From Perkinsus olseni (lineage: Eukaryota), in contig JABANN010000040.1 of assembly GCA_013115125.1 (NCBI GenBank), forward strand, positions 1 through 64,000: a stretch of 64,000 bases of DNA. Direction: 5' to 3'. A model generated the notes under the pieces. The model saw nothing but the letters and a program-made list of their open reading frames with translations, did no database searches and had not been told where the DNA came from. The translations under genes were made by a program, and so were the position numbers. Shown piece by piece: positions 10,602 to 50,287 of the stretch (the first letter of the stretch is position 1; each line of letters starts with the position of its first letter).

Positions 10602-12926
10602 ATGTCAACCTCTACTGCTCAGCAGAGCAACAGCCCGGACTTCGCATCTACGCTGCAGTTCTACTCATCCTCGGCGCCGCCCGCCACGATGTCCAATCAA
10701 GATAAGATGGTCAACTTGGGCAAGCGGGCAGGTAGTAGCAGTAGAGGTGTATGGGAGCGCACTCAGAAGGCTGCTACGAATAAAGCGCGTTGGCACGTAC
10801 TGTTGTTTGGTGCGTCCGTTCGTTCCTTGATGGATGTAAGCGTTTACTGACTGATCGACTGAAAGCAGTGGTAGTAGTACTGATATGCAGCTCGCTTGTC
10901 GAATGGATCAGGCTTTGAGAAATCTCCCCTCGATGGGTGTGCCCACCTCTGTGTCTCATGAAGCTCATCCCGTTTTCGGAAGCGAGTTTGCCGTGGATCA
11001 TTCGAATGCTCGTTTACTTGAAGTTTTCGGCGTTCGTCGAAGAGCTTTCAACGAACACTAGAGGGTGGGCAAAAAGCACGCGGATATCAGTACCTTCTCG
11101 CTGTAGTAATTGCCAAGATCTCACTCAAGTAGTGTAAAGAACACTACGGAACCAGTTGGTAACTTTTGGGACGCCCGCTAGAGCGGAAGATTTTCTATCC
11201 AAGCTCTGGTATAATCAGGCGCTTTGCAGCTGCTATGAACTGGAGCTGTGCAGAGTAATTTTCACTCTCCTTTGTACCGTGTAGGTCAGAGCATTCAAAC
11301 GAATGCCCCAGTCGTCCTTGGCGCGATATCCAGTGCAATCGCTGGTGCTATGAACACCGTCAAGGATGCAGCATCGGGAGCCACAGGAGCATCAACCACT
11401 GCTAAAACTGATGACTTGGACAGTAATACATGGGGGATATTGGGATAACTCTCATCCGGCTCAGCGTCACGGGTAATAATATTTTTCACAACCCAACAAG
11501 GTGCAACAGAGCTGTAGTTTACTCGTTTCCATCACATTCGAGCTTTCGGCTCTGAGTGTCTGAGGTCTCGTGTATGTAGTGGCCCGTGGGGATCTTACCT
11601 ATCCCGCTGGACCGGCAGTACCCTGTTAGTTTGGGCAGTGGTCCTTCCGGTATTTAACTTGTGACGTACCTCACGTTGCCTTCAGCGTTCGATTTGGAGC
11701 TGGGAAAGGTCGATACCGCTGGCCAAACCTCTTCTGGGAGCTCGAGTGCATCGAATGGTCAAGGTAGTATGCCAGGCCCGGGGGTACCGCTGGATTGGTG
11801 CTTTGCCTTCAATTTTTGGGACATCCGGGAATGCCGGACAGACGGCGTGCTTTCGGACGGAGTGGCTGGCCGCTAGGTCTTATGGAATAGATTGTGCCTG
11901 TCAGCTGGGGAGAACGCAAGTTTGATCTCGCAGTGGACGAGCTCAGCCATGCAGTCCGGTACGCAGGCGTTCCAGGGGATGAAGCAGCAGGCGTCGGTGA
12001 GCACTCGGGCTAGTTGGGTTCATGTCCCACTAATCTTCGAGTATCCTGAGGTTAACAATGAAGCCATAGTTGGTGTCTGCACGTTCCGGTTCAGAGGCGG
12101 GTCTTGTCTCCTCAGGATATGGCATCAACTCGTGATACGATAGGGAAGTTCATCATGTTCTTCGCTGCGGGGTGCATATGCATGATGTTGGCCTTGACGT
12201 TCCTCCCGATGGTAGTAGAGGGTATCCCCATTCTCGGTAGCCGTACGAGTGAGTTTACTATCGAACTAGGGGATGTGTCAGCCAGGCGGCTTTGGGAATC
12301 TTGAGGTTGTGATGCTCCGCTCGGGAACAGTTTCACAGATTCAGCGGTTTGTAGTGTCGTGATGTTCGAGCTGCGTTAGAAGGCAGCCCAAGGATAGTTC
12401 TTTTTTCGCAGGTTGTGATCGCACCCCAGAAGTTCGCCCTCATGTTCACCGTGGGAAGCTGTTTGATTCTAATGAGCTTCTCGGTGTTGAAGGTAAGCAT
12501 CCCGTGTGTCATTTGCATTTACGTGTTGAGACTCAACCGTGTCGGTTCGTGACGGTTTCTTTCCCGTGCTTCAGGGCCACGCGGCATTCATAGCGCACAT
12601 CATGTCTCCGGAGAAACGACTCTTCACGGCTGGGTATGCAGCCTCGCTCGTCGCAACATTGTACGGTGCTCTGGTGAGCAAGTCGTACGTTCTCACTGTT
12701 GTTTTCTCCCTCATTCAAGTAGTGGCACTGGCATACTTCCTCGTCAGCTATATCCCGGGAGGTAGGAACAGCTCGGGCCAAGCCAGTCGTGCCAGCGAGC
12801 ACTGTCTCAGGCACAAGGGCCCTCACGATGATAGGGAGTGTGGCGGTTTCAACAGTGAAGAACTTGTTCTCTTCAAACGCCGGCGCTGCTACTTCAAGCT
12901 CACAGTCAAGCGGACTTCCGCTTTGA
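10602..12926 (+). CDS. SFT2: Got1/Sft2-family vesicle transport membrane protein with N-terminal low-complexity extension
   Basis: Four hydrophobic helices across exons: KFIMFFAAGCICMMLALTFLPM|VVIAPQKFALMFTVGSCLILMSFSVLK|GHAAFIAHIMSPEKRLFTAGYAASLVATLYGAL...VALAYFLVSYIPG|GTRAL. The 5' exon structure is less certain. Confidence 0.85.
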
Positions 12927-13194
12927 AGTGGGTATCTAGTTTGTTTTTGGTAATGATGAATAATGTACATTCTACTGAGGGGTCTCTAAAACTGCTGCGT
13001 TTCTACTACTACTGCCAAACTGCACACGGACAGGGAGAGGGTTCAGAGCGTTTGGTGGAGCTTATAGAAGATCATCGTGTAGCTTGGATGCCACCGACAC
13101 AGCAGTAACCGCTTAACCTACGAAGGGCGCTCATGTTTCGTGTTGTTAATTGGTCGGAGCAGCGGGGACGTGGATTTCAGTTGTTAGTCGGCTG

Positions 13195-16100
13195 ATGGCG
13201 GACGTCGCCGCACTACTTGAGTCAATAGAAAGGTCTCAGTCGGAGGTCGAAAGTGTGAAGTTACGGATAGCAAATGTAGCTGGTAGTACTGCAGGGAGAG
13301 GATGGGAGGCTTCGGGATGGATTGCATTTATACCTGCGTGACGGCCATGCGCTGATGACTTCCTTGTTGAGGTCTCACTGATCGCTCCTTGAAACCGCGT
13401 TGATTGAGGAAGCAGCGCACTAACTCCGTTTTCGTGCTCCTATTGTTGTGTGAACTGATCGCCTGCTCTGCGGCGTATCGGGAGACCCGCTGAGAAATGT
13501 ATCCTGAAGGTAAACTGAACCAAGTGAGGATGGCGGTTGCAACTTCGTCGGGGCCCTCCTCGGCCATGAAGGACGTTGGTACTAATCGGCTGAGAGATGA
13601 GATCGCTAAGGCCCGAGACGGGATTAAGCAGTAAGGAGACTGCGAGTTTGAGCTGAGCGGCGGTGGGAGGGGGTCTGGTTAGGTTCAAGAATTTGATCAA
13701 GGACGCTGCAGAGGCAGCCGCAGCTGAGGAGCAAACTACGATGGGATTCGGGGCGCTCAAAAAACGCATGGCGCACGATGACAAGACTAAGACACTGTAA
13801 TGACAGGCGAGTGTTGGTAGCCGGGATGGGTGATTGATAGGTATGAGAGAATCGGCGGCGACTTGACATTGGAAACGGCTGTGGAGATGGCATACGGCCG
13901 AGCGCTCCAGGACCCGAGGACAAGGTAGTGCTGGCTGACTCTGGTACGATCACTCGGTGTTCGAGCTTCCACATATCTGCCGAACCTTTGCCGGCTTCTT
14001 TGTGAACTCCGTCGTGGTCAGGGCCTACTTCGAGAAGAACCAGCGGAAGATGGCTTCTATTCGACAGAAAATGCACCAGGTGACAATGCTATGATAAGCC
14101 GCAGCCTGGGCGGTAGCATGCTTGGTATTTCAGTTCCTCTCGGGGTTGATGGGTGGACCGGTACTCTACGACGAGGAGAATGTGAAGCCCGCCCATTATC
14201 ACATGAATATTACTGACTACCACTTCGATGCGGTGAGTCCCTGTTTCGCAGTACTTGCAACTGCGGTAACCTCGATACGGGTGCAGGTGGTTGAACACTT
14301 CCAGAATGCCGTCGAGGAGCTGGGCGTTCACCCAAATGCCGTACTTGACGCTGTTACGGCTTTCCGGACGGTGATTGGACTGGCTGTCTGGGAGGAGATA
14401 GTGAAGGGATGTTCGATCAGGTTCGCAGGGAGATCACTACAGGTTGCACTGTGCGCATGGAAGTAGCACGGCGGAACATGGAGAAGGGGAAAGACCTTCT
14501 TTATAGGAAAGTTGGCGGTACTATCAGTATGAGCGCTGGAAATGGGAGGATCTTTGGCGCCTCAGAGGCGAAAGGCGTTGCTAAGTTTATGGAGAGGCTT
14601 TATGATCTCATCTGTATTGATACGCGCATAAAAAAGTTCTTCCAAGGCAAGGATGTTAACAAGTGGGTTGATGGGAAGTCGAAGGCGCGTCGGCCTGAAC
14701 TGAGTTCGTCGATTAGGGTCAAGAAAAGCCAGACTGTGTTCTTCACGGAAGTCCTGGGGGGTGACAATAAGTGGAAAGGTGGGGGCTGCTGAGATGATGA
14801 TAGATCGAAAAAATGTGAATTTTCAAGGTCGGTCCATACCAGAAATTCATAAGGGCATGAATGTCGATGACTACCACTTCGACTGTTTGCTCATGAACGC
14901 AGAGAAGGCTCTGTCGGGTCTTGGTGTGGAGGAAGACACCATAGACGAGGTGACACCAGCGGGGGGTGTTCTGTCACTTAGCGGGAGATTCCTGAGGGCA
15001 GGTACTGGTTGTGCTGGAAGGGTTCCGCGCGGAGGTACTGAATCGTAAGCGAGGGATTAACGCGGCACATAAGGTGGTAGACGGGAAGACAGTCCTTGAG
15101 CGACTGGGAGGAGAGATGAATATGGAGTCCCTCATCGAGACGATGTGAGCTCGGCCGTGCCAGCAGGTCGGAGTCGTTCTCGAAGGCTGAGGAATGCAGG
15201 TATTCTGGATGCCTAGTAGACCCAAGAGTCAAGTACTACTTCGCGCTGGAGCCGGCCAAGATGACGAATCTAAAGTCGAAGATGGTAACCCCGCCTTGCT
15301 ACTGGTGGTTATGAAGAAGTCTGTCGCAACAGGCACAAGTCATAGTTGGGCTCAGTGGCGGCCCGGCGGTCTACGACTTGAAGCGTCTTCGGCCCCTTCA
15401 TTACAACATGAATATCACCGACTACCACTTCGATACGATGCTCGAGAACCTTCGCGTGAGTTTTGTTCGGGACACAATCGCCGAGAATTGCGAACCGTCC
15501 ACCGCACCCGTGTTACGATGGTCGTCATGTGTGTAGGTGGCATGTGAGATGATGGAGCTCACTCCAGAGCTTACGCGGGATATTGCAGAAGTTGCCGCAT
15601 CTGTGCGACCGGACATCACGGCTGGGTGCACTGTTCGACTGGAGATCGCCCGGAAGAAGACTGAAAGCGCCGGTACTGTTGGGAGCGGACGAATTGACGG
15701 CGCTAACTCAGGACTGATCGATGCCTTCCGATATTTCGTCTTTCCTTTCCCACGGCCGAGTTACTGAGAGCGGCGTTCGAATCATGATCAAGTGTGACAG
15801 GCACGGACGGGCTCTTCTGCGTCCTCGGCGGAGATGAAGGGGTGATGAAGTTCATGGACAAGCTGTATGAGTCGGTACTACTGGACGATCGAATCCAGCA
15901 CTTCTTCTCGGGTGCTAAGCTGGACTCCGTGAAGAAGAGTCAAGGTAGATGCGGCACCCGTCGCTCCCACTCTTTCCGGTGATCATTATCACCAGTCGCG
16001 CTCTGAATGCCCCGTTTTATTATGAGCTGTGCTGGCTTTCGCTGATACTGTGTCTCTTCAGCGGAGTATGTGGCGCAGCTTTTCGGCTCCGCCCGGGAGT

Positions 16101-19100
16101 ACATGGGCAGAGAGCTCCCTCGGATACACGCGATGATCAGAATTGCCGACTTCCACTTCGACTGCTTTATCGAACAGTGCAGGAAGAATTTGGCGGCATG
16201 CGGGCTGGATTCGGACTCTGTGGACGAATGTAGTGAGGGCAGTGGTTGTCAAGATCAGTCCCGAGTTACCCACGCTAGTCGTTTCGATCCCGCCGTCCGA
16301 CTCGTATTGAGGCATCGTGCTCCTCTTAAAAAGTGCGAGCTCGGGAGTTTCGTATCGATTGATGTTTCAACGGCGTTCCTAGCTAGTGTAGCTTAGTGGC
16401 AGAGCGTCAGTTCTGTAACCCGAAGTTCTGCGATTCAATCCAACCAATCAGCTTCTATCGTTGAATTAATTCGTCGAAAATTTCGCTGAAAAGTCGGCAT
16501 TTCCTGTACACTGAAGGTTGGCGGTTCAATCCCGCCATTTGGAATTTGGTACCAAAGTTTGGAATCAGGCAATTTCCAGTATCAATTGACACTTTTCCGG
16601 CTTTGAGTGGTTTTTCAAGGCGGTTTAGCTTGATGGTAGAGTGTCAGTGTTGTAAACTGAAGGTCGGCGGTTCAATCCCGTCATCCGGCTTGTATTGCTC
16701 CATTGACTCATTCGAAACTTTTCGGAAAATTTGGAATCAGGCAAGTTTTAGTAACAATTGACACTTTTCCAGCTTCAGTTGGCATCTCAAGCCGGTTTAG
16801 CTTAGTGGTAGAGCGTCAGTCTTGTAAACTGAAGGTCGGCGGTTCAATTTCGCCATTCGGCTTGTATTGCTCCATTGACTCATTCGGAATTTTTCGGAAA
16901 ATTTGGGCTCAGGCAATCTTCAGTGTCAATTGACACTTTTCCAGCTTCAATTGGCATCTCAAGCCGGTTTAGCTTAGTGGTAGAGCTTCAGTGTTGTAAA
17001 CTTAAGGTCGGCGGACCAATCCCGCCATCCGGTTTGTATTGCTGCATTAACTCATTCAGAATTTTTCGGGAAATTTGGAATCAAGCAAGTTTTAGTAGCA
17101 ATTGACACTTTTCCAGCTTCGAAAGGGGTTTCAAGCCGGTTTAGCTTAGTGGTAGAGCGTCAGTCTTGTAAACTGAAGGTCGGCGGATCAATCCCGCCAT
17201 CCGGCTTATGCAGTAGCTTTTCAAACCGGTTTAGCTTAGTGGTAGAGCGTCAGTGTTGAAAACTGAAGGTCGGTGGATCAATCCCGCTATCCGGCTTATG
17301 CTGCATTGACTCATTCGGATTTTTTCGGAAGATTTGGAATAAAGCAAGTTTTAGTAGCAATTGACACTTTTCCAGCTTCGAATGGGGTTTCAAGCCGGTT
17401 TAGCTTAGTGGTAGAGCGTCAGTCTTGTAAACTGAAGGTCGGCGGTTCAATCCCGCCATCCGGCTTGTATTGCTTCATTAACTCATTCGGATTTTTTCGG
17501 AAAATTTGGGCTCAGGCAATCTTCAGTGTCAATTGACACTTTTCCGGCTTTGAGTGGCTATTCAAGTCGGTTTAGCTTAGTGGTAGAGCGTCAGTCTTGT
17601 AAACTGAAGGTCGGCGGTTCAATCCCGCTATCCGGCTTATGCTGCATTGACTAATTCGGAACTTTTCGGAAAATTTGGAATCAGGCGATTTTCAGTAGCA
17701 ATTGACACTTTTCCAGCTTCAACTGGCATCTCAAGCCGGTTTAGCTTGATGGTAGAGTGTCAGTGTTGTAAACTTAAGGTCGGCGGACCAATCCCGCCAT
17801 CCGGCTTGTATTGCTGCATTAACTCATTCAGAATTTTTCGGGAAATTTGGAGTCAAGCAAGTTTTAGTAGCAATTGACACTTTTCCAGCTTCGAAAAGGG
17901 TTTCAAGCCGGTTTAGCTTAGTGGTAGAGCGTCAGTCTTGTAAACTGAAGGTCGGCAGTTCAATTCCGCCACCCGGCTCGTATTGCTCCATCGACTCATT
18001 CGAAACTTTTCGGACAATTTGCAATCAGACAAGTTTTAGTAGCAATTGACACTTTTCCGGCTTTGAGTAGCTTTTCAAGCCGGTTTAGCTTAGTGGTAGA
18101 GCGTCAGCCTTGTAAACTGAAGGTCGGCGGATCAATCCCGCTATCTGGCTTATGCTGCATTGACTCATTCGGATTTTTTCGGAAGATTTGGGATAAAGCA
18201 AGTTTTAGTAGCAATTGACACTTTTGCAGCTTCGAGTGCGGTTTCAAGCCGGTTTAGCTTAGTGGTAGAGCGTCAGTCTTGTAAACTGTAGGTCGGCGGT
18301 TCAATCCCGCCATTCGGCTTATGCTGCATTGACTTGATGCATTGATTTAGGGTCTACGTAGTCTAAGAGTTTCTTCCTTAGGCACAGTGCTGCTTGAGAC
18401 AGCGCGGGCGTCCGTTGTGCACCCCGATCTGAGAAAGCACGACTCCAAGCGAGCGCAGCAGTTAGCAAATATGAAACCGATGTAATCTCATCTCCAAGCG
18501 AGCCTCTTTCTCTTTTTAGGGTATGGTTTTTTCTCTATTATCGCACTTTTGATGCGCGGTTCGAATCACGTAGGCTTTGGATGGGATACTGACTCATTAG
18601 GTACGATCGGATTGGAGGCGAGCCTGCACTTACTAAGCTTATTGACATAGTATACGACAAGGCACTTGTGGACACGAGTCTGCGTAGCTTTCTCGAGAAG
18701 AATAAAGCCAAGGTTTCTTCTATAAAGAAGAAGATGATTCAATTCCTGTGTGGAATAACCGGTGAGTGCGCTATCATAATCAGCGCTAGCTATCGACGTG
18801 CGCCCAATCCTATGTCTACCGTCAGGGGGTCCAACCAGCTATGATGCCAACGATATGCTACCGGCGCACTACAACATGAATATCACGGATTATCACTTCG
18901 ATGCAATGTTGATACTCATCCGAGAAACCTTCCTTCGGGAGCTGGATATGAAGCGAAGTAGGCACGGGAACTCCGGTTGCGCATATTCGGCCGTTGGCTC
19001 AGGCGATTCTCGGGAACTCATGAAACTGCTGCAGCCTGTGAGACCGATGGTTACTACAGGCTTTGGCGTGAGGAGAGAAATAGCGTTGAAGAATCTGTCA

Positions 19101-20647
19101 TTAGGCAAAGACCAGCTGTACAGGAAGTGAGTACTATCAGGCTCGGCTAGGCCGTCAAACGAAGCAGCTGAGCTATCGTCTCATCGGAGGTTCTTCCGTT
19201 TAGGCTGGGCGGCGAGAAGGGCATTCGGGAGACCCTGAATGTTCTGTACCAAATCGTGGCCACCGATGCTCGAATCAAGGAGTTCTTCGTCGAAAAGAAA
19301 ATCAAAAAGATAAAAGAGGGGCAAACGAAGTACTTCATCGAAATGTTTGGAGGGCCGAAGACGTCCACCGGCCGCGAGCTCTACGCCATCCACGAGAATC
19401 TTGGAGTCAATGATTTCCACTTCGATGCCTTCATGGCCGACCTCCAGCGGGCTATGCTCGGCACTGGCGTTGATGAGGTGATTATGGATGAGGTGCTGAT
19501 CACCGTAGAACAAGTACGACCTCAAGTGATGGGCAGGAAGACTGTCGAGGGTAGAGGGACCCTGGAGTGATTGGGCCCGACTGAGTATGTGTATTCAGTC
19601 GCCGGAGTGATGAAGAACGGCAAGACGCTGCTGATGCGGCTAGGTGGCGATATGAACCTCGAGTCTCTCGTCGAGAATATGTGAGTTGCCCTGAAAAGGC
19701 CGCCCTGCCTCGGGCGTGAGATTCTCAGGTACGATCGTGCCGTTGTGGACTCGAGGGTGCAATTCTTCTTTAATCGAGACAAGGCCACACAGAGGAGGAT
19801 CCGCATGAAAATGTAACGCTTTCTCTCCACTGTACCGTCGCACTAGCTGCATGTGAACCAGGTACCAGTATCTCAGTGGAGCCTTTGGTGGCCCGGTACA
19901 GTACGACCCTGCCAACTTGAAGCCAGCTCATTATAATATGAACATCACCAACTATCACTTTGATGCCATACTAGAGATCTTAACTAGAGCTGCCAAGGAG
20001 ATGAATATTGATGCTGACACGATGGACGATATGACCCAGGTCGGTGGCTGCTGGATGTAGTGTGCAGTACATCGCCATTATCATCGGCAGGTCGTGAACG
20101 GTATCCGCTCTGACGTTACCATCGGCTGCACGGTGAGAATGGAAGCTGCGAGAAAGAAGAACGAGACCGACGGCTTGGATCAGCTATTCATGAAACTGGG
20201 CGGCCACGAGGGAATCTCCACCTTCATCAGTCGCCTGTAGTCACATAGCGTGGGTGCTCAAGGGATGGGTTGAATGTCGGCAGATATGAATTCGTCGAGA
20301 GAGACAACAGAATCAATATGTTTTTTGAAGGCTCCAAGCTGGAGCTCATCAAGAAGGCCCAGGGCGACTACATCAGCATGCTGCTCGGAGGTGCTGTCTC
20401 CCGTACTTTTGGTGGACACAGCGGTGTCTCCTTAGGTTCGTCCGAGTACAACGGGAGAAGCCTCGAGGAAATCCACCAAACCCTCGCCATGACTGACTTC
20501 CACTTGGACTGCTTCCTCCAGTGCGTTCAGAAGGCCCTCAGGGACTGCGGCGCCGAGCAGGACACGACTGATGAAGTTGTCGTTCGACTGGAGTCTGTTC
20601 GGAAGGCGATCCTCCACGCTCACTACTCCGACGCCCAGTACAGCTGA
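13195..20647 (+). CDS. Polymeric group-I truncated (2/2) haemoglobin: short N-terminal helical region plus 8 tandem globin domains
   Basis: Spliced translation gives eight units, each with an LYxxLGG-like start (VGE in domain 2), Tyr B10, a D.R...FF-like CD region, a GG hinge (GS in domain 4), proximal His F8 and HFD/HLD. Starts: YERIGG (~13842), LYRKVG (~14500), LERLGG (~15095), LFCVLGG (~15812), YDRIGG (~18602), LYRK|LGG (~19115), LLMRLGG (~19628), LFMKLGG (~20184). Ends HAHYSDAQYS*. Confidence 0.92.
16382..16453 (+). pseudogene. Highly degenerate tRNA-Thr(TGT) copy
   Basis: GCTAGTGTAGCTTAGTGGCAGAGCGTCAGTTCTGTAACCCGAAG...TTCAATC; anticodon and T stems broken. Confidence 0.7.
16619..16690 (+). 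pseudogene. tRNA-Thr(TGT) copy 1, likely defective
   Basis: G2 mismatch in acceptor stem, D-loop AG changed to GA, G at position 32. Confidence 0.65.
16791..16862 (+). tRNA. tRNA-Thr(TGT) copy 2
   Basis: Cloverleaf with TCAGT-CTTGTAA-ACTGA; invariant C61 changed to T, so function is uncertain. Confidence 0.65.
16963..17034 (+). pseudogene. tRNA-Thr(TGT) copy 3, defective
   Basis: GGTTC changed to GGACC in the B box; anticodon stem mismatch (ACTTA). Confidence 0.75.
17135..17206 (+). tRNA. tRNA-Thr(TGT) copy 4
   Basis: Matches the array consensus except T54 to A (GGATCAA). Confidence 0.6.
17225..17296 (+). pseudogene. tRNA-Thr-derived copy 5 with anticodon TGA
   Basis: TCAGT-GTTGAAA-ACTGA; A1, T54 to A and T-stem wobbles. 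Confidence 0.7.
17394..17465 (+). tRNA. tRNA-Thr(TGT) copy 6 (array consensus)
   Basis: GCCGGTT TA GCTT AGTGGTA GAGC G TCAGT CTTGTAA ACTGA AGGTC GGCGG TTCAATC CCGCC ATCCGGC T; intact A and B boxes, T6 run ~25 nt downstream. Confidence 0.9.
17566..17637 (+). tRNA. tRNA-Thr(TGT) copy 7
   Basis: Consensus apart from two changes that give G-U wobbles. Confidence 0.8.
17735..17806 (+). pseudogene. tRNA-Thr(TGT) copy 8, defective
   Basis: GGACC B box, ACTTA anticodon stem, altered D loop. Confidence 0.75.
17907..17978 (+). tRNA. tRNA-Thr(TGT) copy 9
   Basis: Intact anticodon arm; one A-C mismatch in the T stem. Confidence 0.65.
18079..18150 (+). pseudogene. tRNA-Thr(TGT) copy 10, likely defective
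   Basis: C-A mismatch closing the anticodon stem, T54 to A, additional wobbles. Confidence 0.6.
18248..18319 (+). tRNA. tRNA-Thr(TGT) copy 11
   Basis: Intact boxes; T-T mismatch at the top of the anticodon stem. Confidence 0.7.
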
Positions 20648-20699
20648 AGGCCGCCCTCGGGCGCCCAAGGCGCAGATGGCGGACGCCCTACCGCCGTTT

Positions 20700-21861
20700 A
20701 TATTGCTTCACACGCATGACCATTTTTGATGTGCATCTGATGTGCTCAGCGGCAGCCTTGAGGGTCGAGTTGAAAGCCATTCGGTTGAGCTCCCCTCAGC
20801 TTCCTTTCGCGGCATGGCCACTCCGGAAGGCAAGCGGCCACGATGTCTCGCCTGCCTCCTTGGGATGCTCCGCGGCAGTCGGTCGAGACTGCATGCTGTA
20901 GAAGTTAGGCTGACAGACGACGATGTCACGTTCAACAGCGGAGCGAAACAACAGAAGCGCGTCTCGAGGACGAGGCGGTTCAACACTAGAGCCGCCCAGA
21001 CCGACGAGTCTACTGTTGGCGGTGGAGGCGGCCGGAAGCTTTCTGTGGCCGTACCTGTGCCGTGGGCTGGGGACCTCCCGACCACACCGATGTCCTTCAG
21101 GAAGCAGAGGACTCCCAGTGGTGATGGATTCTGGGAGGCATCCCATGATCTGACGTAATTGTATCTTCGCAGGTTCATCATGTGGTGAGAATCCAGAGGG
21201 GGCTGGGAAGGCCGGAACCTCCGTAAGCTCCGGACCTGAGCTGCTGCAGGGAACGCGGTATCACGTTGTGTTCCTTGGAGACACCGATTCGGTAGTATGG
21301 ACGACATCGCTCGCTGCAGGGACTTGATGCAGAGAGCTCGAGCAGGCGAGTAGCTTTCTCAGGTTTCTTACTCATCATCGTCGTCAAGTGCTTTGTCATC
21401 AATTTCTTCGTTCCAGCGCTCGACATGTGAAGGCGAGGCGGAGGAGGTGGTGGTGGATGCTGCTGGTGATGACACGAGTCGCAGCGCGGTAAGCAGTCTC
21501 TCACGCCCGCAGCATCACCTAAGGGAGCTTCGCATAAGCCTGATACTTCCCTGGCCCCGTCCATTCGTCACCATCGTCACAATTCGACTCTAGTGTCGAT
21601 CTGAGCTCGGAAGCATCGGCATCTTGGTCCTCGTCTTCAGTGTGCTCCGCCCGAAGAGTCACAGGAAATCGTGGCGGCTCTACAGCGACGCCTTCGAGAG
21701 CGCGAAGCCCAGACTCGAGCGTTGATGCACCGCTGGCGGGCATACGTCCGAGGCGGTGCGGTCCATGATGTGGATCGGATAATTAGTATGAAGATAGAGT
21801 CCCCTTGTGGCCTTCGCCGGGGCGCTACAAGCTCATTAGCTCTCTCGTAGTCATCATGCAT
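20700..21861 (-). CDS. Hypothetical protein (multi-exon)
   Basis: Minus-strand exon-like stretches (ESGLRALEGVAVEPPRFPVTLRAEH; PRDALLLFRSAVERDIVVCQPNF) separated by plausible introns; model and ends uncertain. Confidence 0.35.
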
Positions 21862-23491: not shown

Positions 23492-26150
23492 CTAAGCTGG
23501 TTCCCCACAGCGAGGCTAGTCTAACTAAGCCGTACTGTCGGCGTTGGACTTTAGACTCACATGCCGGTCACTACACTGCAGAGAACGCAAATCAACAGAA
23601 CTCCTGAACAACGGTGACGTGGGACATCGGCATCATGTTGGCATGCGTACCGAAGACTTCCTCCGCGGGGGTTTAGAGGCGCTCCTGCCAAGGCGCATAG
23701 TAGCTGATGCATCCAAGAGTCGTTGCAGAGCTGAATTGAAGCCAGCACTGAGCCACGAGGTACTTCCGACCGGAGCAGCCTCGGGGCGGGAGGGCCGGGC
23801 ACGTCTCCTCGTCCTTCTCTCTGGTAGTACAATTTGGGAGCTTGCGCCTCCTCCAGCTTGCGCTGGCTTGGATCGCTTAGATCGGGGCACTCGCTCTGGC
23901 AGGACGATGCAGATCGCTTCGCTGTTGGCAGGACTCTGGGCCGCACAACACTCTGAATCTACCTCTCCATCCGAGCTGACCCACAGAGCCGCAGTATCGG
24001 TGCTGCTAGAGGCGGGGCTCACACCAGCAGCGGTCAGCATTGCGGTGATCAACAGACTGGCCCGCTGGGATGAGGCTGCACTCATGTCGCGGTACCCCCG
24101 TGTTGGCGGTTGTTTGCCAACCCCAACCTCCTCTGACGAGCTGGATTCGCTTATTGAAGCATCATCATTCGCTCCATCGCGTCGTCGTCCGGGGATCTTC
24201 TCGCCGTTCACTGCCTGGGAGTTTTCGGATGTACCGAGTCCGGCGCCGCAGTGCGGACACCGGAAGCTGCGTCCATAGGCTGAAGTCTGCACTCCCTTTT
24301 CTGCTGGACGATGCTCATCTTCGTAAGCATCGTCATTTGGATCAAACGAGAGCCGAGGAGGCGGTGGAGTGGATATGGCGAATACTTTAGCTTGGAAAGG
24401 TAGTGGCACGGGTGCCAGTGCTGAGCCGACAGACTCGGCCCTCTGCTCCTCCCAGTCAGCCACCATCGGCGACGGTTTCATCTCGGTTGCACTGGACTCG
24501 GCTGCGCTTCCTAAGAAGGACTCTATCGCTGCGAGAGCTGAGGAGAAGAGGGCGAATCTGAACGGATCGCTACAGCCTACTGGATACCTCGAGCCTTGCC
24601 GGGTGACGGTGGTGCGCCTCTCCCATGCGTTTCGCTGATTATTGTACTGGTAGTGGACATACAAGAGGCCTGCTCACAACACAACCCGACTGGGGCCGGA
24701 ACACAACGCGGACGGCAGCAGCCAACACTGGTGAATGGTAACGTGGTAAGTGTTCATGTAGCGACCAGGGCATCATCGCCTCCTTCGTCTCCGCGCTGGA
24801 GAGGCTGGAAGAGGAACATAAGCTACAGCAGTTGCAGCACCTAACGTCGAGCGGCGTATGAAGGGAGGGGCCTCTGCCGGCTTCTCGGCCCCCCAGAGCG
24901 TGTTGAACCATGCCGCTGCAGAGTCGATGTAGCTCTCGGATTCATCACCAGCAGTGGTAGTCAGGACTCCATCCGTCACGTGCACGCTGACTCCCGGTGA
25001 AGGGTCCCCTCGAGGACTGTTGGGGGTCCCAGCCTCTCCGCTAGTGCTTCCAGCGAACGAGTTTCGATCGTCCTCGGCACTCTGCTGTTCTTCCACTGTT
25101 TCACTTGCTGACGGTGGCATCGGCTGGATAAGAAGAGAGCTCCTGGCCGCGTCTACCATGGGTGGGTTCTCTCCCAGAGCATCCAACTCCGACCCCGCCC
25201 TTCCGTACTGCGGATCAAACCCTGTTCTCCCCGTTAGTGACAGGATACTTCCATATGCTCCCTCGCCGCCCAAGAGGGAAGGCCGAAGAGGCAGCTCTCC
25301 CTCGCCTGCGGTCACCGATACGCCCTGGTCGGCCCCCTCGAAGTCGGCCCCCATAGCGTCCACAAACCAGTCTGGTGGTGCCGATGGGGCGTCGAGTCCG
25401 TCGAGTATGGTACAGGAGACCGCGGCATTGGCCCGCATGATGCTCTCAGTCTGGACGCTCACTTTTACTTTCTGAGGGGGCCGCTTGAACATGTACGGCG
25501 CAGGAAGTGCGGAGTCGTAGGCCACATCCCCCCACACCCGAGTCTGCGTAGGCCTGCTCACCACGCCCGGTCGCCTCTTTCCCTGCGTGAGGCCTGGGGA
25601 GTTCGGGTTGAACGCCGACCCGCGAGGCTCCAGAGTATCTCTAGGAGAACTCAAGGGGCCCGATTTCGACCTAACTTGACCTCCCGTCGCCACAGTGGTT
25701 CTCAGCCCAACTTCAACCGTTTGCACGCACGCTGAGCTCATCTGCCGGGCCTTCCGGTGATCCCTGCTCGCTACGCGGGCTATCTCGTCTACTATGCACT
25801 TGATAACATGAGGAAAGACATCCCACTGGGCCTGAGGGAGGACCTATCGAGCGGGACGATGACCTCTCCCCGACTCACCGCAGTGTCGCAGCCCATTTGG
25901 TCGATGTAGCTGAGCTGGTGCTCGGCGAGTTTGTTAGCAATGACGAGAACTCTGAGCATCAGCGTGCACAGTTGCGGCGACAGGGGTGAGAGGACTTGGG
26001 GAATGTACTGGGAGAGCTGCTCCCAGTCCCGAACCTCCCTCAGGCCGACCGGGCCTGCTGGAGGGACTGCCCCCGAGTAGAATAGCGAGGGGATGGTGGA
26101 GGGCATAGGACAACTGAAAGCCTTCCTCGAGCTCCGCTTGGGAACCAAAA
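23492..26150 (-). CDS. Hypothetical protein B: helical domain plus disordered region with VQT/TQT motifs
   Basis: ORFs 25792-26148, 24773-25741 and 23633-24664 joined by GT-AG introns; domain DWEQLSQYIPQVLSPLSPQLCTLMLRVL...LAEHQLSYID. May be the second half of the gene upstream. Confidence 0.6.
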
Positions 26151-26199: not shown

Positions 26200-28092
26200 G
26201 GATGGTAAGCATCTCTAGGAGACTCTACTTATTGGCACCTCTCCTCCTCTGGAAGGCTGAGACAGAGTTGGGGAGGACGATAGGGTCCTGGATGGACGGG
26301 CCTGAGGAGATAAAAATGGTTCGGAAGAAGCGCACGTCAACACTTACCTGATTCGGGAGGCTGCTGGTCCCTCTCTCGTGACGATGAGAAGTAGCGGGAC
26401 ACCGCTGATGTGATCTGCATCACGCGCGCCCCTTCGACCTCTCCCTCCCTTGAAGTCACTCTCAACGTTGAACTGCTAATCCGTCTCCGCTGTGATCGCT
26501 TTCTCTTAGAGGGAGGCGGATCTTGCCATAGCCCCGAGACCCAGGTAGTTAACATATTCGCGTACTTGTCAACGGCCTGCTGCTGCTCAACTTCTGCACC
26601 TTCAGCGTCCTCGAGGGAGGACTCGTGCCAGGATGAGATATCGGACCCCGCCTTCTTGCTCTGTGGATGAGCTTGAGGCGGCGGGAGGGGAAGCGCTACA
26701 ACCACCTGCTGCTGGCCCGGAGCTTCCCGATCGAAGGAAGCTCGAGCTCTCGAGCTCACGGGAATGACCGTTGTGTTATCATCCCCTTCTATTGCGCTGC
26801 CCCCATGAGCGTCTGCGTGAGAGGACACCCTCGCATCGGAGGGCCGGGGGCACTGATCAACCTCGCCAGAGGCCCTGCGGGCGCAAGAGGAACTTCCACC
26901 TGCTCGCTTCGTTCCAGCATCAACAGCCACAGCACTTGTCGAGGAGGGAACTCGCCTGTGGACCAGGCCTCCTTCCTCCGGTCGGGCCGGGGCCTTCACA
27001 TCTAACGAAGGGTTGCGCTGTGACTTCCCAACTCCTTCCATTAGCTTCGAGCGTCCACCATTCGCCTCCACCATGTCCACCAGCACTGCATCGTTGTTCG
27101 CCAAGGTGGTAGAGTTCTCCGGAGCTGCTCGACCTACTGCTGCCTCGGTCACGCGTGGCGAGGCTTGACTTGGTGATGCCTCCTTCCCTCTCAATGCACC
27201 CGTGTGAGCTCGATTGAGAGCGCTGTTGACGCTGCAGTGTAGAGTGAAGGGCCCTGACTCCCCGCCGAGGCTAGCCAACCCCTCGGATCTGTCTCGTTCC
27301 GAGCAACGTTCAATTTCCATCTCAGTACCCGCGTGGCCGCCGGCAGTCTGAACACTACTGTCGGCTAACTGAGGGAACGGAATCGTCCCCGCCTCACGTA
27401 CGATAGCGATCGCGCTGATACCGAGACTACGCGTCGCCAACATGGATGAAGTACCCACGCTTCGGCAGGGCTTCTTCGTGAGGGTGGGCCGCCGGATGCA
27501 GCGCCGGCACGGAAGGTCGGCCTGGGATTCGGCCGCTTGCCGCTTTTGAGGGGCTACCATCGTATTTGTGCCCCGGGTAACCGTGGGCCGAAAGTCGAGA
27601 GGATCCTCCCTGGCCGTGGACGGTGTTTGGTCTCGAGGCTCCGTCTCCCTAGCGCTGGAAGGCACAATCACCTTGGGCTCGAATTTGCCGCTCTTTAAGG
27701 GAGCCGTCTGGACGCCACGCGTCAAGGCCTTGGTACTGGACTGGCGCGCTGAAAGGTCCGCGAGGGCCTTACTAGCCGCTACTGTTGCAGTCTTCCGATG
27801 CTGGCAAACGATGACCACCTCGTCCACGATACACTTGAGGACGCACGGAAAGATCTCCCACTGGGCCTGAAAGATGCCACAGCATTCGAGCGGCGGTTGC
27901 AAGTAGCACTACCGCTGTCTCCTTATCCAGAACCTCGATGTGGTTCAGTTGGTGCCAAGCCAGCCGCTCAACCACCTCCATCAGCCGCAGCATAAGAGAG
28001 CACAACGGCGGCGCCCTCCGTCCCAACGCCCGGGGTATGTACCGGGCCAGGGCGCTCCAATCCTCGGGATCGTCAGTGCTCAGTCGTGACAT
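26200..28092 (-). CDS. Hypothetical protein A, paralogous to the adjacent protein B
   Basis: MSRLSTDDPEDWSALARYIPRALGRRAPPLCSLMLRLMEVVERLAWHQLNHIE followed by the 521-aa ORF 26337-27902. Confidence 0.6.
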
Positions 28093-28399: not shown

Positions 28400-31300
28400 G
28401 AGCCGATCGAAGGGTTTCTCACCGTCCAGAGAGGCTTACCGAAAAAGCAAGTCGGTCACTACGAGGTAGCCAAAACGTGGAGAGGTGATGGCGTAGGTGG
28501 TCCTGAATGTATGATAGACCACAGGCCGAGTGATGGAGCACCTCACATCTGGCTTCCTCCTCTCCACTTAATGGCGTGAAGTCGTCGTTGAGGTCGTCAC
28601 CGAAGACCCAGTACGTTGCAGCCCTCATGGTCGGAGAGTCGGGGTCGGATATCGGGCAGGCGTTAGGGTTGAAACCGTACCTGCAGGAAGCGCAGCATGG
28701 ACAGAGCTGACGTTGGCTGAAGCTGCAGAGCCTCCCCAGCGGGCCTTACACAGAGCAGTCGGTCATGTGGCCTACGGTCACTTGCCAGGCCGCTTGATGA
28801 GTGATGATCCAATTCCTCACGTACTGCGCTTCCCTGTTCGAGCTCAATTGGAGGAACCACTGGAGGGCGGTAGCACTCGAAGGGCCGCTCCCCGAGCCAT
28901 TGGTCACGGGCGTGACATACATCTGAAAAGAAAAGAGGTATGCCGGGGACAGTCTCTCAACCTTGTCTGACCTCAATGACTCTGCCACCGACCAAGTTCA
29001 CCAACGTCTGCCTTTGCCATTCACAGTCGACAGCAAGCGGGCACCGGACCATCACGCAGGACCCTGCTCCGCCAACGCCGCTTTCCTGGGAAGGAAAACG
29101 CATAGCGAGACGGAGAAGCGGCAGGCTAGCGATGCTCACCTCGCCGTCAGAAACGAAGAGCTTGTCGGCCGGCAAAGCAAAGCGCCTTATTGCTGGCATT
29201 AAATTCTTCACTCTAACTTGGAACATAGTCGTGGAGGACGAGTCCGCAGCAGCACCACCACCGATGTTGCTTCCGTCGAACGACATACCATAACTTTCGC
29301 TCATCGCGCCTGTATCAAAGCCGCGAGGTTCGAAGGCAGAGCAGGGTGCAGTCAGTGGGGAGGCATTGTTCATGAAATGCTGGGCACTCCGGATACTCCC
29401 GCCACCCGAGCCTGCCGACGGTGTTGCCGGCTGCTGCTGCTGTCCCAGTAAGGGCCCCCTCCAGGCCTCCCTCATCGCCGCAGGAGGACCCCATACGGGT
29501 TCCGGCAGGGAAGACGGAGGCCCCTGGAGCCAAAGGGAGGGGTCAGGGTTAGGGAACGGAGCGAAGGAGGGATGCTCGATGTTGGGCAGGGGCTCCCAGA
29601 CACTGCGAGATGGCGATGTATCCGATGTTATACCACCAGAGGTCACCGACTTCGGTCGTGTCGCTGGAGGGGCTGATGCCGGTCCTTCCTGGCGGTTCTT
29701 GGCGGCCACGGCGGGCGTTGCAGGCAACGGCAGACCGGCAAGCTTCGGCGAGCCGCTGACGACACTGCCAGGGGTCAGGTCACGGACGGGTGGAAGCTGC
29801 GGAGGCGGCGGTGGAGGGGGAGGAGGGGTTACCGGGGGCTGCTTCTGTTGGGGCGTCACTTGTCGGGGTAACGCTTTCTCTGGTCTCTCCGCCTTGACAG
29901 GGGTCTTCTCCACAGCCTTCGCCTTCACCTGAGGCTTCTTCTTCTCAGGAGAATCATCAGCCACCTTGCGAGCAGGCGGCGAGGGCATCGTCGCAATCGT
30001 TGGTGGAGGAGCCTTCTTAGCTGGCCGCGCCGGTGTCGATGCGGGAGGAGCCGTCCCCGCTGGCTTCTGCACCTCCTTCGCTGCTCTCTGCTGAGCTTCC
30101 GAGGCCGCCGCTAAAGCCGCTTTCTTCTCCAGTATTTGCTTTGCCTTCTGCTCGGCCATCATCTGCTGATGCCGCTTCTTCTTGCTTTGTACGGCACACC
30201 AAGCCATATCAGCCGACCGCTGGGCCGCCTCGGTAGGACTGATCGCCGCTGCCGGAGGCTCTACCGTAGGCAGTGGCTGTAGCAAGGAAGCGGCTCGTTC
30301 CGTTGCAGAATGCTTATACTTGCCGCTATGGACGATGAGCTCGAGGTCGCTGTCCTCGTCACCGCTCTCCTCCAACGCACTCCCCTTCATGGAGGCCGTC
30401 TCTGCCTTGCCACTGGTGGCCAGAGAAGAATCATCATCATCCAGCACCTCCGAAACCATCGTCGTGGAGGCCTTCTTCTTCTTAGTCTGCTTCCGAGCCT
30501 GTGGCTGCTGTACCGTCTGATGCCTCCAACCCGCGCTTGCCGTCGATAGCTCCAAAGCACGCTTGCGGTCCCTCTCCGCGATACGAGTTTCCAGCACCAG
30601 CAGCCACTGCGCGTAGATCGACTTGGCCCTGCTCACAGTGTTCTGCTGCCATGCCTTAGAGTTAGGCTCTACTGTTGAGGATGCACAGTAGGCCGCCATC
30701 CACTTGTTCAACTCGTCGACGGACCCCCAGGCTCGGATGCAGGCATGCCACCACAGGTGGTCCTTCGGTATGCTGGCTGCTGTGACCTCGTTGCTGCTGT
30801 TGTGATGTGCTGCTGCACCGCCCTTCTTTTTCGACCCTCCCTTTCTCTTTCCACCCTTCTTGGCAGCTCCTGCGAGACTTCCAGTCCAGGCCTGCTCGAT
30901 CTGTGCTGGCAGAGGTGGTGCGTTGGAGACGCTACCCGATGCCGCCATGACCTGCGGCGTCGGTAGCACGGTAGCAAACTTCTGCTTCAGCACATTCATC
31001 GACAGCTTCACATCCTTCTTCACCAGACCACTTATGACGTGGCGAGGCGTGCAGATGAGCTTCCCGACACAGCCGGGCGTGTAGACGCAGTCCTCGCTCT
31101 GGCGGTCCCGTACGAGATTTTGAATGCACATATCGTGGAAGGCCCGTTCTGGGTGGCAGCCCTCACTGCAACGGACTCGGGCAGGATGGAGTGCCGTCCC
31201 GAGAGGCATGTCACACTTGAAGCACCGGGGCCCTTGGACGACCCTTCGGACGTGCTCCTGGATGCTCTCCACCGAGGCCGAGTCGATGAGCTGCTCCGGG

Positions 31301-34300
31301 GTCAGCTGGCGGCCTATGGGACCAGTGAGGACACTACTGCCGGTGGTACGTGTAACGTGCCAGCCCGAGTCTAGAATCTTCCCCTTCGCTGTAGACGAGC
31401 CCGCATTGGCCTGAGGCAAGGAAGATCCCCAACCTTCTCACGGGAGGGATGCCCACCTTCTCCTCCGCATTGGCTGTGGCATCCGTTGCTGCGGCCTTCT
31501 CTCCAACTGCCTTCTTAGCAGCTTTCGCCTAAAGGCCACCGACTACTCAGGAGACGGCAGCAATGAAGGACATACCTGTGGCCTCGAGGGAGCCATCTGG
31601 CGCTGATGTTCCTTGCACAGCCCCTCCATGGCGTCATCCAACTTAGCCGCCGCCTCCGCGATATACCTCTCCGCGACTCTCAGCTCACCGGGAGTAGCAG
31701 CGCCCAGCGTTGCAGCCAACTGATAGTACCATCATACGCTCTACGACGAGTAAGGTGGGGAGATGGACTACCTGGGTCGCCGAGAGAGTGCCGCCTGACG
31801 TAGTGGCAGCTAGCAAGGAACTAGTCCTCGGGACCAGTATCTGCGAAAGAGTCATGGTCTGCCCTGATGGAATGTGGGGGTATCACCTTTCTTTTAACGG
31901 CAGTTACTGGAGGGATGGTATCGGGCAACGCAGCCTCCGCTGGCGGAGCGGGGGTCTCCTCGTGAATACTGTCCTGTTGAATAGTGCCTGGCAGCAGAGG
32001 CGTGCGAACCTCTCAGCGTGAGATGAGAGAACTGATGACCTGGCGACATGAAGATGAGAATATCGCCGTCGATGATCCTCTCCTCCCTCACAGTACGGTC
32101 CACATCACGCTTGATGGTTTGGCGAACATTCATCTCCTCCCACACCTGCTCCCAGGCATGATTGAGTAGGGCGAGGACGCTATCAAGCCGCTACCTCGAC
32201 AGCCTCGGCATCGCTGTCGGCTGCTTCGGCGATGGTGGCACCGTCTGGAGTATGGCTGCTGATCTTAGCCCGCACCGCGGGGAAGTAGTCACGGAGTCTG
32301 CACCGAGTGTCCAGCGTGACCAAGCCTATTGATATTAGTCGTAGCGTCTGAGGACAGTACTGATACTCCAATAGAAAAACTTGACTTCTCCTCACCTTGG
32401 GATGGACGAACTTCACCCACACTGTGGCCTCCTCTGTGACCATTGGTGGACTCTGTTGCGCCGCGGACGACTGCTTCGACAGCTGCCTCGGAGACGTCGG
32501 GCGATTCATCATACACAACACCTACACAGGCGTTGCCTTCTACGCTACAGGCGTGGTGACGACCCACCACAACGTGGCCGATTGTATTAGAGTTGGGCTG
32601 ATGCCCCAATCGGTCGCTCCTCGATGACTGCTGCTGCTGCTGTTTCTGCTGGGCCGGTGTAGCTGCCACCGGCTGCTGCTGCTGCTGCTGGGGCTGTTGC
32701 TGTTGCTGCTGTAGCGGTTGCTTCTGCTGCTGCTGCTGCTTGCCTGCCGTGCCCTGCTGTTGTTGCTGACTAGCCAGCGCCGCCTGGTGTGCCGCGGCTT
32801 GGACCGTCGAGGGCATGTAGGATGCGATCTGGACAAAGAAACCGTCACCACCCTTCATGAAGGTCATCACGACTCACCATCCTAGACGGTGTCATCAGTT
32901 CGAACCTTTCCTGATGGGTATCAGCGTAATAGCGCAGCGCGAAGAGCCTCTGCATGTGCTTCGGTATCTTAAAGTGTTCTTCAACCTGCCCAAGGCCGCG
33001 ACTATCGAGAGACCCCCATCACTTGACACCGCCTACCGCTTTCATCAACCTCTCTACCGGTATGTCCTTCCGCACCAGGAACTTCCTCCCCTTATGCGGA
33101 AACATGCCGTTGAGATAGTAACCATCGACCTGAACGGCTACACTGGCGAGAAGCCTGACGAGGAGGTGGGCCTACGTTGGTCAGCTGACCCTCGGTGACT
33201 AGGGTGACCTCAATCTGCATAGACGCCGATGCTGCAGCCGCCAGAGCAGCGGCTTTGACTGAAAGGGCGCAGCTCAGCCTGTTGGTAGACCACACGAGAG
33301 CACTTACTGTCCTGATTGGACTGGCCGCCGTTCTGCTCAGCTCGGGCCTGTGTTAGAGCCAGCTGGTCGTAGATGAGAGGAGAGTGCGCCGCCGGATGCA
33401 GGGCGTGATCCCGAGCCACCAGCTGATGACACTGCAGATGTATCGGCTGAGGCAACGCGCAAGTCAACACAACACATTGGAGTGGTCCGGCAGCACCTTG
33501 TGGAGACCGATCTTCTTCGGCAGCCCCGCCGTGACTTCAGCATACAAGCTGGGCCGAATGTGCCTGAGCCGAAGCGGTTAGGTGACGAAGAAGGCTACAC
33601 CATTACCACCCACCTGAAGTCCACCCCGCGCTCATACAGACGATCTTCCTGGTCCTCCCGTACGTAGCAGAGGCCCACACAGGCCCACTCCGGTGAGAAC
33701 ACCCATTCTGTGCAATGGAAGCCATCTTGGAGGACCTGGGCAACGACCTAGCAGTCTCATGACAGAGGCATGTTGAAGGCGTCGTACCTCCCTGTAACCG
33801 TCGTCAATCCGACACCAGCGGCCTCTCCGACTCTGTCGGACTAGGACGTAGTAGTGGCCGACACCAAGGCCTTCAGAATCAGTAGCTCCACAGACGTTGG
33901 TACAGAACGTGACAGAATGAAGACGATAGCGGAACTCCGAGGTCGCGGCGCGGCCTCCATCCTGAGGGAGAGTGACTGTTGCCGGGAAATCACACGCCGG
34001 ACCCCTCCTCCTAGTACCACTCGAGCCGACAGTGCAACCGCTGGGCTGTCCTCCTCGCCGGAGCTGCTGACGCTAGCCCTCTCACACGTGTCGTCACTCT
34101 CGCTGCCCCTGACAGAAAAAGGGCTTCCCCCTTGCAGCTCACTGCAGCTGCACCGCTCACCCTTTTCGCCCCTCCCCGCTTCGTGACGTTGTCGGAGATC
34201 CCTGACACAAGATCCCCGTGCCATAGCAGCATCTGGCTCGCCACCCAGAGTACCGTCCGACTCAGCTGTTGATAGCGCTGGCTAGCCGCCTCCACTACTA

Positions 34301-50103: not shown

Positions 50104-50287
50104 GTAGTGGAACTGGTAGAGGATGTCCGCGATAGGGCTCAGCCGGCACTCACCAGGTTGCGTAGTAGCAAACTCAAAAGAAGATGAGTAAAAAAGCACA
50201 ACAGATTATTATCATCACTGTTTATAGACGACTTCATGAGCATACTCAAAGGCACACTATCATTATGTACAGCAAATAGTAATACAC

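Follow-up and report, generated by a model that had tools for sequence, protein, structure and literature searches.

We analyzed a 64,000-nt stretch of Perkinsus olseni DNA (positions 1 to 64,000 of the forward strand of contig JABANN010000040.1, assembly GCA_013115125.1; below, the window), in which intron 15 (16230–18381) of a gene encoding an eight-domain truncated haemoglobin contains a head-to-tail array of tRNA-Thr(UGU) units on the strand of the host gene. The array sits in a true spliceosomal intron, which is removed precisely. We consider it likely that the array represents a tandem, homogeneous cluster of tRNA-Thr(UGU) genes and pseudogenes of the nucleus, the intact copies of which are predicted RNA polymerase III (Pol III) genes. 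Both parts of the arrangement, intronic tRNA genes and tandem tRNA clusters, are of known kinds and are combined here; the array is not a new class of element.

Architecture and splicing of intron 15

A total of 11 matches to the tRNA family of Rfam (RF00005) were found on the + strand between 16619 and 18319, with scores of 44.3–70.3 bits (gathering score of 29) and no tRNA match elsewhere in the window. The repeat search revealed three relics upstream of the first full unit, and all 14 tRNA-derived segments are on the host strand. These results bear out the first-pass annotation, made from the letters of the window, which had claimed eleven full units plus relics in the orientation of the gene. 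The tRNA-derived share of intron 15 is about 95%. Tandem Repeats Finder gave a period of 172 nt with 84–86% matches, as well as periods of 90, 259, and 341 nt, the last corresponding to two units; the gap between copies 4 and 5 is 18 nt, which makes a short unit of 90 nt. The G+C content was 0.465 over 16001–18000 versus about 0.53 on either side.

The anticodon TGT occupies tRNA positions 34–36 in 10 of the 11 units, while the unit at 17225 has TGA. ARAGORN with default settings called nine units, eight of them as Thr-TGT and one as a Thr-like body with the anticodon TGA at 17224–17297; the units at 16963 and 17735 were called only at a relaxed threshold, alongside dozens of spurious calls. 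With Rfam matches accepted up to E = 1 over 16100–18500, only a chance-level match to Plastid-ycf2 (20 bits, gathering score of 65.7) was added to the 11 tRNAs; in the same search, no known RNA family was found in the spacers and the three relics gave no match. A metagenome scan for exact matches to 55 nt of the best tRNA copy gave 0 loci.

The borders of the intron were determined from contigs of run X7. One of them joins 16229 to 18382 at a depth of 4.84, skipping 2152 nt between GT and AG, with 100 letters on the shorter side. The first-pass annotation had proposed an intron of about 2.15 kb with junction reads joining approximately these two positions; its primary donor and acceptor proved exact, while its alternative donor 3 nt downstream is unused. 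Run X7 was only guessed to be RNA, is of low depth, and contained 34% of the words sampled from the gene. Its contigs over 13300–20900 contain 14 GT..AG joints in the host gene, of which 0 were present in the DNA runs X1, X4, and X8; so many joints within a single gene would be difficult to account for if this RNA-like run were not RNA. The run also covers the intronic bin 16348–16601 at a depth of 3.3, and one of its contigs (19003–19245) passes without a joint through 19127–19203, an intron predicted from its borders (GTGAGT...TTTAG) and domain continuity. The unspliced cover of both segments indicates that X7 holds unspliced RNA or some DNA; the cover of 19127–19203 could come from intron retention or from DNA within X7.

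The phase-1 join reads ...DSDSVDEC followed by TVLLETARASVV..., in frame, and is identical to that of the public protein model P0001 (1,473 aa, hypothetical protein, Perkinsus olseni). The joined end of domain 4 aligns with domain 8 (...DTTDEVVVRLESVRKAIL..., DEVVVRLESVRKAIL) and with domain 2 (DEVLVVLEGFRAEVL); comparison with domains 2, 6, and 8 agrees with the earlier proposal that the junction completes the last helix of domain 4. Since the intron is removed precisely between 16229 and 18382, the array leaves the protein uninterrupted. The next joint of X7, from 18481 to 18601, has the same depth and brings the frame into domain 5 (...MKPM joined to YDRIGGE...); the locus is thus one eight-domain gene and not two, which is of direct value for its annotation.

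Intron 15 lies at the seam of the two four-domain halves of the protein, where it had been placed before. The best identities between domains pair D1 with D5 (44%; D1 with D7, 46%), D2 with D6 (39%), D3 with D7 (47%), and D4 with D8 (43%), which makes the host protein an old duplication of a four-domain block. The other introns had been described as mostly about 50 nt long; the 23 small introns of the model range from 44 to 128 nt with a median of 52 nt, and intron 15, with its 2,152 nt, is about forty times as long as its neighbours.

Table 1. Coordinates of the host gene, intron 15, and the tRNA-derived segments in the window
Feature	Positions	Strand	Description	Evidence or remark
Host gene	13497..20647	+	eight-domain truncated haemoglobin	model of 25 exons
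Exon 15	16062..16229	+	domain 4 from E helix to ...DSDSVDE plus first base of Cys codon	3' end set by X7 joint
Intron 15	16230..18381	+	2,152 nt, phase 1, GTAGTG...CCTTAG	X7 contig joint
Relic 1	16283..16317	+	T arm, 3' acceptor strand, and trailer	repeat family D5, 60–77% identity to corresponding part of 7 units
Relic 2	16369..16497	+	entire unit in decay, with end of one spacer, degenerate tRNA, and start of next spacer	family D3, 61–71%; ARAGORN only relaxed
Relic 3	16502..16542	+	tRNA 3' half, anticodon loop to acceptor	family D4, 13 copies in register
Copy 1 (TGT)	16619..16690	+	decayed: C2G breaks pair; A-box A14G, G15A	Rfam 47.1 bits
Copy 2 (TGT)	16791..16862	+	no extra broken pair; B box GGTTCAATTTC	Rfam 64.8 bits
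Copy 3 (TGT)	16963..17034	+	decayed: T54A, T55C; G42T breaks pair	Rfam 47.2 bits; missed by ARAGORN default
Copy 4 (TGT)	17135..17206	+	sole change T54A	Rfam 67 bits
Copy 5 (TGA)	17225..17296	+	Thr-like body, T36A in anticodon; G1A breaks pair; T54A	Rfam 50.7 bits; ARAGORN 'Ser(tga)'
Copy 6 (TGT)	17394..17465	+	best copy, equals array consensus	Rfam 70.3 bits; 0 differences
Copy 7 (TGT)	17566..17637	+	two changes (C2T, C65T), each keeps a G-U pair	Rfam 63.7 bits
Copy 8 (TGT)	17735..17806	+	decayed: A14G, G15A, G42T, T54A, T55C, variants shared with copies 1 and 3	Rfam 44.3 bits
Copy 9 (TGT)	17907..17978	+	G52A breaks T-stem pair	Rfam 64 bits
Copy 10 (TGT)	18079..18150	+	T31C breaks anticodon-stem pair; T54A	Rfam 57.9 bits
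Copy 11 (TGT)	18248..18319	+	A43T breaks pair; no T run of at least 4 before acceptor	Rfam 64.4 bits
Non-repeat 3' tail of intron	18335..18381	+	pyrimidine tract and AG	last spacer leaves unit consensus about 15 nt past tRNA
Exon 16	18382..18481	+	end of domain-4 H helix and linker (C)TVLLETARASVVHPDLRKHDSKRAQQLANMKP(M)	X7 joints on both sides, frame kept

Evidence for and against a cluster of tRNA genes

Several points weigh against reading the array as a cluster of tRNA genes at this locus; they come from the assembly, from the other Perkinsus species, and from the copies themselves. Regarding the assembly, no contig of any run crosses the whole array, and the count of 11 copies therefore depends on the assembly; run X1 may be the very sample behind the assembly of the window. 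Contigs of X7 over tRNA bodies bear foreign flanks, which indicates that they come from other loci.

An assembly artefact, with the array misplaced here or flanked by two separate four-domain genes, would fit the lack of a spanning contig and the fact that gene models of two other species end at this point. We regard it as extremely improbable, and it is already largely refuted: contigs from two studies, X1 (study P1) and X4 (study P2), link unique sequence to the first and the last units with 0 other letters. In each of these runs, 13300–16650 is covered by a contig of 16,097 nt, which extends as far as the interior of the first full unit, and 18259/18262–20900 by one of about 5.1 kb beginning within the last unit; twelve short internal pieces of the array match with 0–1 other letters. 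The spliced contig joining 16229 to 18382 goes on over the next intron into domain 5. The candidate arrangement of two separate four-domain genes was ruled out by this contig, which crosses both 16229–18382 and 18481–18601; a separate second gene would also have no usable start codon, the in-frame ATG at 18581 hitting a stop three codons later. Contigs of X8, a run with the same species label, differ at about 3–9% of positions in the listed pieces and cover 16060–16598 (exon 15 and the relic zone) and 18280–18515 (half of the last tRNA, the tail of the intron, and exon 16). They enter the array from both flanks; therefore, the arrangement predates the split of X8.

The evidence from the other species consists of breaks in gene models and not of sequence. 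The proteins P0006 of P. marinus (632 aa) and P0007 of P. chesapeaki (613 aa) both end a few residues past ...VDEC, reading into the intron, and P0003 of P. chesapeaki (flagged as partial) starts with TVLLETAR..., where the first complete codon follows the intron. These breaks, and with them the splitting of globin gene models at one codon in P. marinus and P. chesapeaki, would be accounted for if all three species had an intron here that is long or resists assembly. The longest recorded contigs are 32,356 nt for P0003 versus 8,297 nt for P0007. A protein search for the second half in P. marinus returned only P0001 and P0003, which is weak evidence either way.

The copies, designated here by their first positions, are of unequal quality. 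The number of differences from the array consensus is 0 for 17394, 1 for 17135, 2 for 17566 and 18248, 3 for 16791 (C60T, C61T, and C68T) and 17907, 4 for 18079, 6 for 16619, 16963, and 17225, and 7 for 17735; the consensus sequence is kept whole in only 1 of the 11. One extra broken stem pair was found in seven copies, two of which also have A-box changes and two of which lack T55. A mismatch between U6 and U67 in the acceptor stem is present in every copy. T54A occurs in 5 of the 11 copies, is accompanied by T55C in two of them, and is the sole change in one copy without a broken pair. Other losses of conserved bases are A14G together with G15A in two copies and T36A in one. Four copies (17394, 17566, 16791, and 17135) have no extra broken pair. 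The threonine identity elements for threonyl-tRNA synthetase (ThrRS) are the pairs G1–C72 and C2–G71 together with G35 and U36. All of them are kept in the consensus and in 7 of the 11 copies, the exceptions being C2G (16619), C72T (16963), G1A with T36A (17225), and C2T (17566).

Each unit had been credited with internal A and B boxes and with a T run downstream. This is only partly true: the A box is intact in 9 of the 11 copies, the consensus B box (GGTTCAATCCC) is present in 4, and a T run of at least four at +12 to +29 follows 10 copies, the last copy having none before the acceptor. Among the other B boxes, two are changed in or beside the box (positions 52 and 60–61), three have T54A, and two have both T54A and T55C.

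Mean pairwise divergence was 0.098 in the tRNA bodies versus 0.166 in the spacers (36 pairs of 9 full units), and invariant columns made up 50 of 72 in the bodies versus 59 of 101 in the spacers, which is little difference. Compensatory double changes were not found among the copies; the stem pairs that might count as kept all result from C-to-T changes giving G–U, which mutation bias alone can produce. Therefore, constraint on the tRNA bodies is weak. The best-kept blocks of the spacer are the T-run block (0.97 agreement), an invariant 14 nt spanning −36 to −23 relative to the next tRNA, and the invariant CAA that directly precedes each tRNA (−3 to −1). Over 16619–18247, the 14-nt block, CAATTGACACTTTT, is the longest invariant stretch of the 172-nt unit, lying in the spacer and not in the tRNA; an invariant run of its length appeared in 215 of 20,000 column shuffles. 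These blocks lie at the sites expected for the stop, upstream, and start signals of Pol III, which is suggestive but proves nothing; the 14-nt block may be a candidate upstream Pol III element of Perkinsus.

Weak constraint brings up a silent tRNA-derived satellite, i.e., a neutral repeat with a tRNA seed that is tolerated in the intron and escapes Pol III transcription, repressive chromatin being one conceivable cause. We judge this alternative unlikely. The extra broken pairs in 7 of the 11 copies, some of which have also lost invariant bases, and tRNA bodies only modestly better kept than the spacers are consistent with it, but all four copies without such a pair have a downstream T run, and three of these keep the consensus A and B boxes or differ from them only at B-box positions 60–61, the fourth having T54A. 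Dispersed copies could supply the tRNA, and clustered tRNA genes of Arabidopsis are reported as epigenetically silenced in PMC7544208; on the other hand, the best-kept spacer blocks coincide with the expected Pol III start, stop, and upstream signals, and the array persists in a lineage that is 3–9% diverged.

Transcriptional interference, release of tRNA from the intron, and a chromatin boundary had been suggested as possible consequences of the array. A further alternative, which we consider highly improbable, is that RNase P and RNase Z release the tRNAs from the RNA polymerase II (Pol II) pre-mRNA of the host or from the excised intron, so that the supply of tRNA-Thr would be coupled to globin expression. 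The common strand of the host and all 14 tRNA-derived segments would suit this mechanism; however, a tandem array is single-oriented by construction, and its orientation therefore counts as one event. X7 covers 16348–16601 at a depth of 3.3 versus 4.8 for the spliced join, and unspliced RNA may thus exist, but this cover may be DNA, given the guessed nature of the run, and the host is thinly covered in X7. Host promoters control the expression of intronic tRNA genes in C. elegans as described in PMC4999229, whereas the conserved T runs and internal boxes of the present units fit autonomous Pol III genes. It is also quite improbable, in our opinion, that the array is kept across species for a function, either as a source of tRNA-Thr(UGU) from the Pol II transcript or intron or as a Pol III/TFIIIC boundary or roadblock at the four-domain seam. 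If this were true, the roadblock could modulate transcription over the seam and, for instance, promote a product of four domains from transcripts that stay unspliced or end early.

Origin of the array and comparison with known systems

In X1, at least three unrelated upstream and at least three unrelated downstream flanks were found at the tRNA borders (loose contig ends); therefore, near-identical tRNA-Thr(UGU) exists at dispersed loci. The contigs with the tRNA at other loci lose similarity 0–7 nt from the tRNA ends, indicating that the spacer of about 100 nt does not travel with the tRNA. A tRNA-derived short interspersed element (SINE) was rejected as a candidate, because all copies follow one another strictly head to tail at a single locus and the spacer is missing from the other loci.

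We infer the following course of events. A tRNA-Thr gene with about 100 nt of flank would have landed in a pre-existing short intron; such an intron is suggested by domain 2, where a small predicted intron lies one base from the homologous position (phase 0 versus phase 1), with none in domains 6 and 8. The 47 nt of non-repeat sequence before the acceptor is probably a remnant of that original short intron. The unit would then have multiplied by unequal crossing-over, which fits both the two-unit blocks that are 89–94% alike, above adjacent units (repeat families D1 and D2), and the presence of the most decayed material at the 5' edge of the array. Copies would turn over by birth and death. 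Judging from sequence features, the intact copies, about four in number, are probably Pol III genes of the ordinary type driven by the internal A and B boxes, with transcription predicted to start just past the invariant CAA and to stop at the conserved T run 24–29 nt downstream, and the remaining copies appear to be decaying. The host gene would tolerate this load because splicing removes the array.

In Caenorhabditis elegans, 44% of 609 tRNA genes are intronic and influenced by the host promoter, as reported in PMC4999229. The array of P. olseni is similar to these in having Pol III-type genes in a spliceosomal intron of a Pol II gene that is spliced normally. In contrast to the single genes described for C. 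elegans, it comprises 11 tandem copies and relics, inflates the intron about 40-fold, and belongs to a perkinsozoan alveolate.

Homogeneous parallel tRNA clusters are known in several eukaryotes according to PMC2888827, with tRNA-Cys units of 0.4 kb in Arabidopsis; clustered tRNA genes of Arabidopsis are also the subject of PMC7544208 and PMC10701932. Such clusters share with the present array the head-to-tail order of one isoacceptor, short parallel units, a mixture of intact and decayed copies, and signs of unequal crossing-over. Unlike the clusters as described in PMC2888827, the array of P. olseni is inside an intron of an expressed gene, and its unit is shorter (172 nt).

The first-pass annotation had compared the array with the tRNA arrays of Entamoeba. 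The likeness holds loosely: in the description given in PMC2652664, these are also tandem tRNA gene units of a protist parasite, but they differ in unit content, in their microsatellite spacers, and in their share of the genome. The present array is intronic and has one tRNA per unit, near-identical tRNA-Thr copies are dispersed outside it, and Tandem Repeats Finder detected no microsatellites in its spacers.

More than 500 copies for five tRNA types are reported for Perkinsus marinus (Kojima and Jurka 2013, PMC3706591), which means that the amplification of tRNA genes is already on record for this genus. The subject of that paper is Dada transposons, whose insertions lie in genes for tRNA-Ile, Leu, Gly, and Tyr; the array considered here differs from the account given there in being of tRNA-Thr, tandem, and intronic, and no Dada-like insertion was seen in its copies. 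We failed to find this arrangement described in the literature on Perkinsus tRNA genes, arrays, and introns or on tandem tRNA arrays within introns, a search outside which Perkinsus genome papers may fall.

The locus offers a clean case in nature of some dozen potential Pol III units in sense orientation inside an expressed Pol II gene, in an organism with introns that otherwise measure about 50 nt. The spliceosome of Perkinsus copes with a 2.15-kb intron rich in stable tRNA folds and T runs. Variants specific to individual copies could allow both the interplay of Pol II and Pol III and the birth-and-death evolution of tRNA genes to be followed.

Host haemoglobin and neighbouring genes

The exon chain of the host gene was composed from X7 contigs, which supplied the 14 GT..AG joints and a single loose end, together with 9 predicted introns. 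In building it, short introns were favoured and the chain was adjusted against the paralogous domains; an intron-minimising chain skipped real exons. Near the gene start, an X7 joint connects 13796 to 13841. Two more short segments, both in frame, are absent from public models of homologues; the host gene may thus have one or two extra small introns, for a true count of 25–26.

The open reading frame (ORF) fragments of the host contain eight copies of the truncated-haemoglobin signature H-x(7)-[FY]H[FL]D. The single-exon domains 6 and 8 match Pfam PF01152 (Bac_globin) above the cut-off, with 46.6 and 27.7 bits, respectively. P0001 has 100% identity to the domain-6 exon query and matches PF01152 in 8 stretches with 367.6 bits. 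This public model joins a Got1/Sft2-like membrane protein (PF04178) to the globin, the two parts corresponding to 12530–13108 and 13497–20647 of the window. Models from P. marinus and P. chesapeaki begin near MADV/MADI...KLNQVRMAV, without the Got1 part, which makes it probable that the fusion in P0001 is a mistake of annotation.

Multi-domain truncated haemoglobins form a family (proteins P0002, P0004, and P0005), with P. olseni paralogues at 37–44% identity. An eight-domain relative encoded on an ENA contig has 42% identity and the same pattern of the inter-half linker as the host. No paper on these multi-domain truncated haemoglobins was found in the literature search. A search of metagenomes with the protein of the domain-6 exon yielded 3 loci with 28–48% identity out of 317 pattern matches, which are too distant for orthologues.

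Elsewhere in the window, long low-complexity ORFs of 356–826 aa without a Pfam match were found on the − strand at 28957–31437, 26337–27908, and 24773–25843. The product of a long ORF at 50139–52169 (−) is a phosphagen (ATP:guanido) kinase that has a Dpy-30 motif at its N terminus (PF00217, PF02807, and PF05186); the only run of N in the window, 50381–50479, is inside this ORF. A MoaA-like radical-SAM protein of molybdenum-cofactor synthesis (PF06463 and PF04055) is encoded at 57244–58119 (+).

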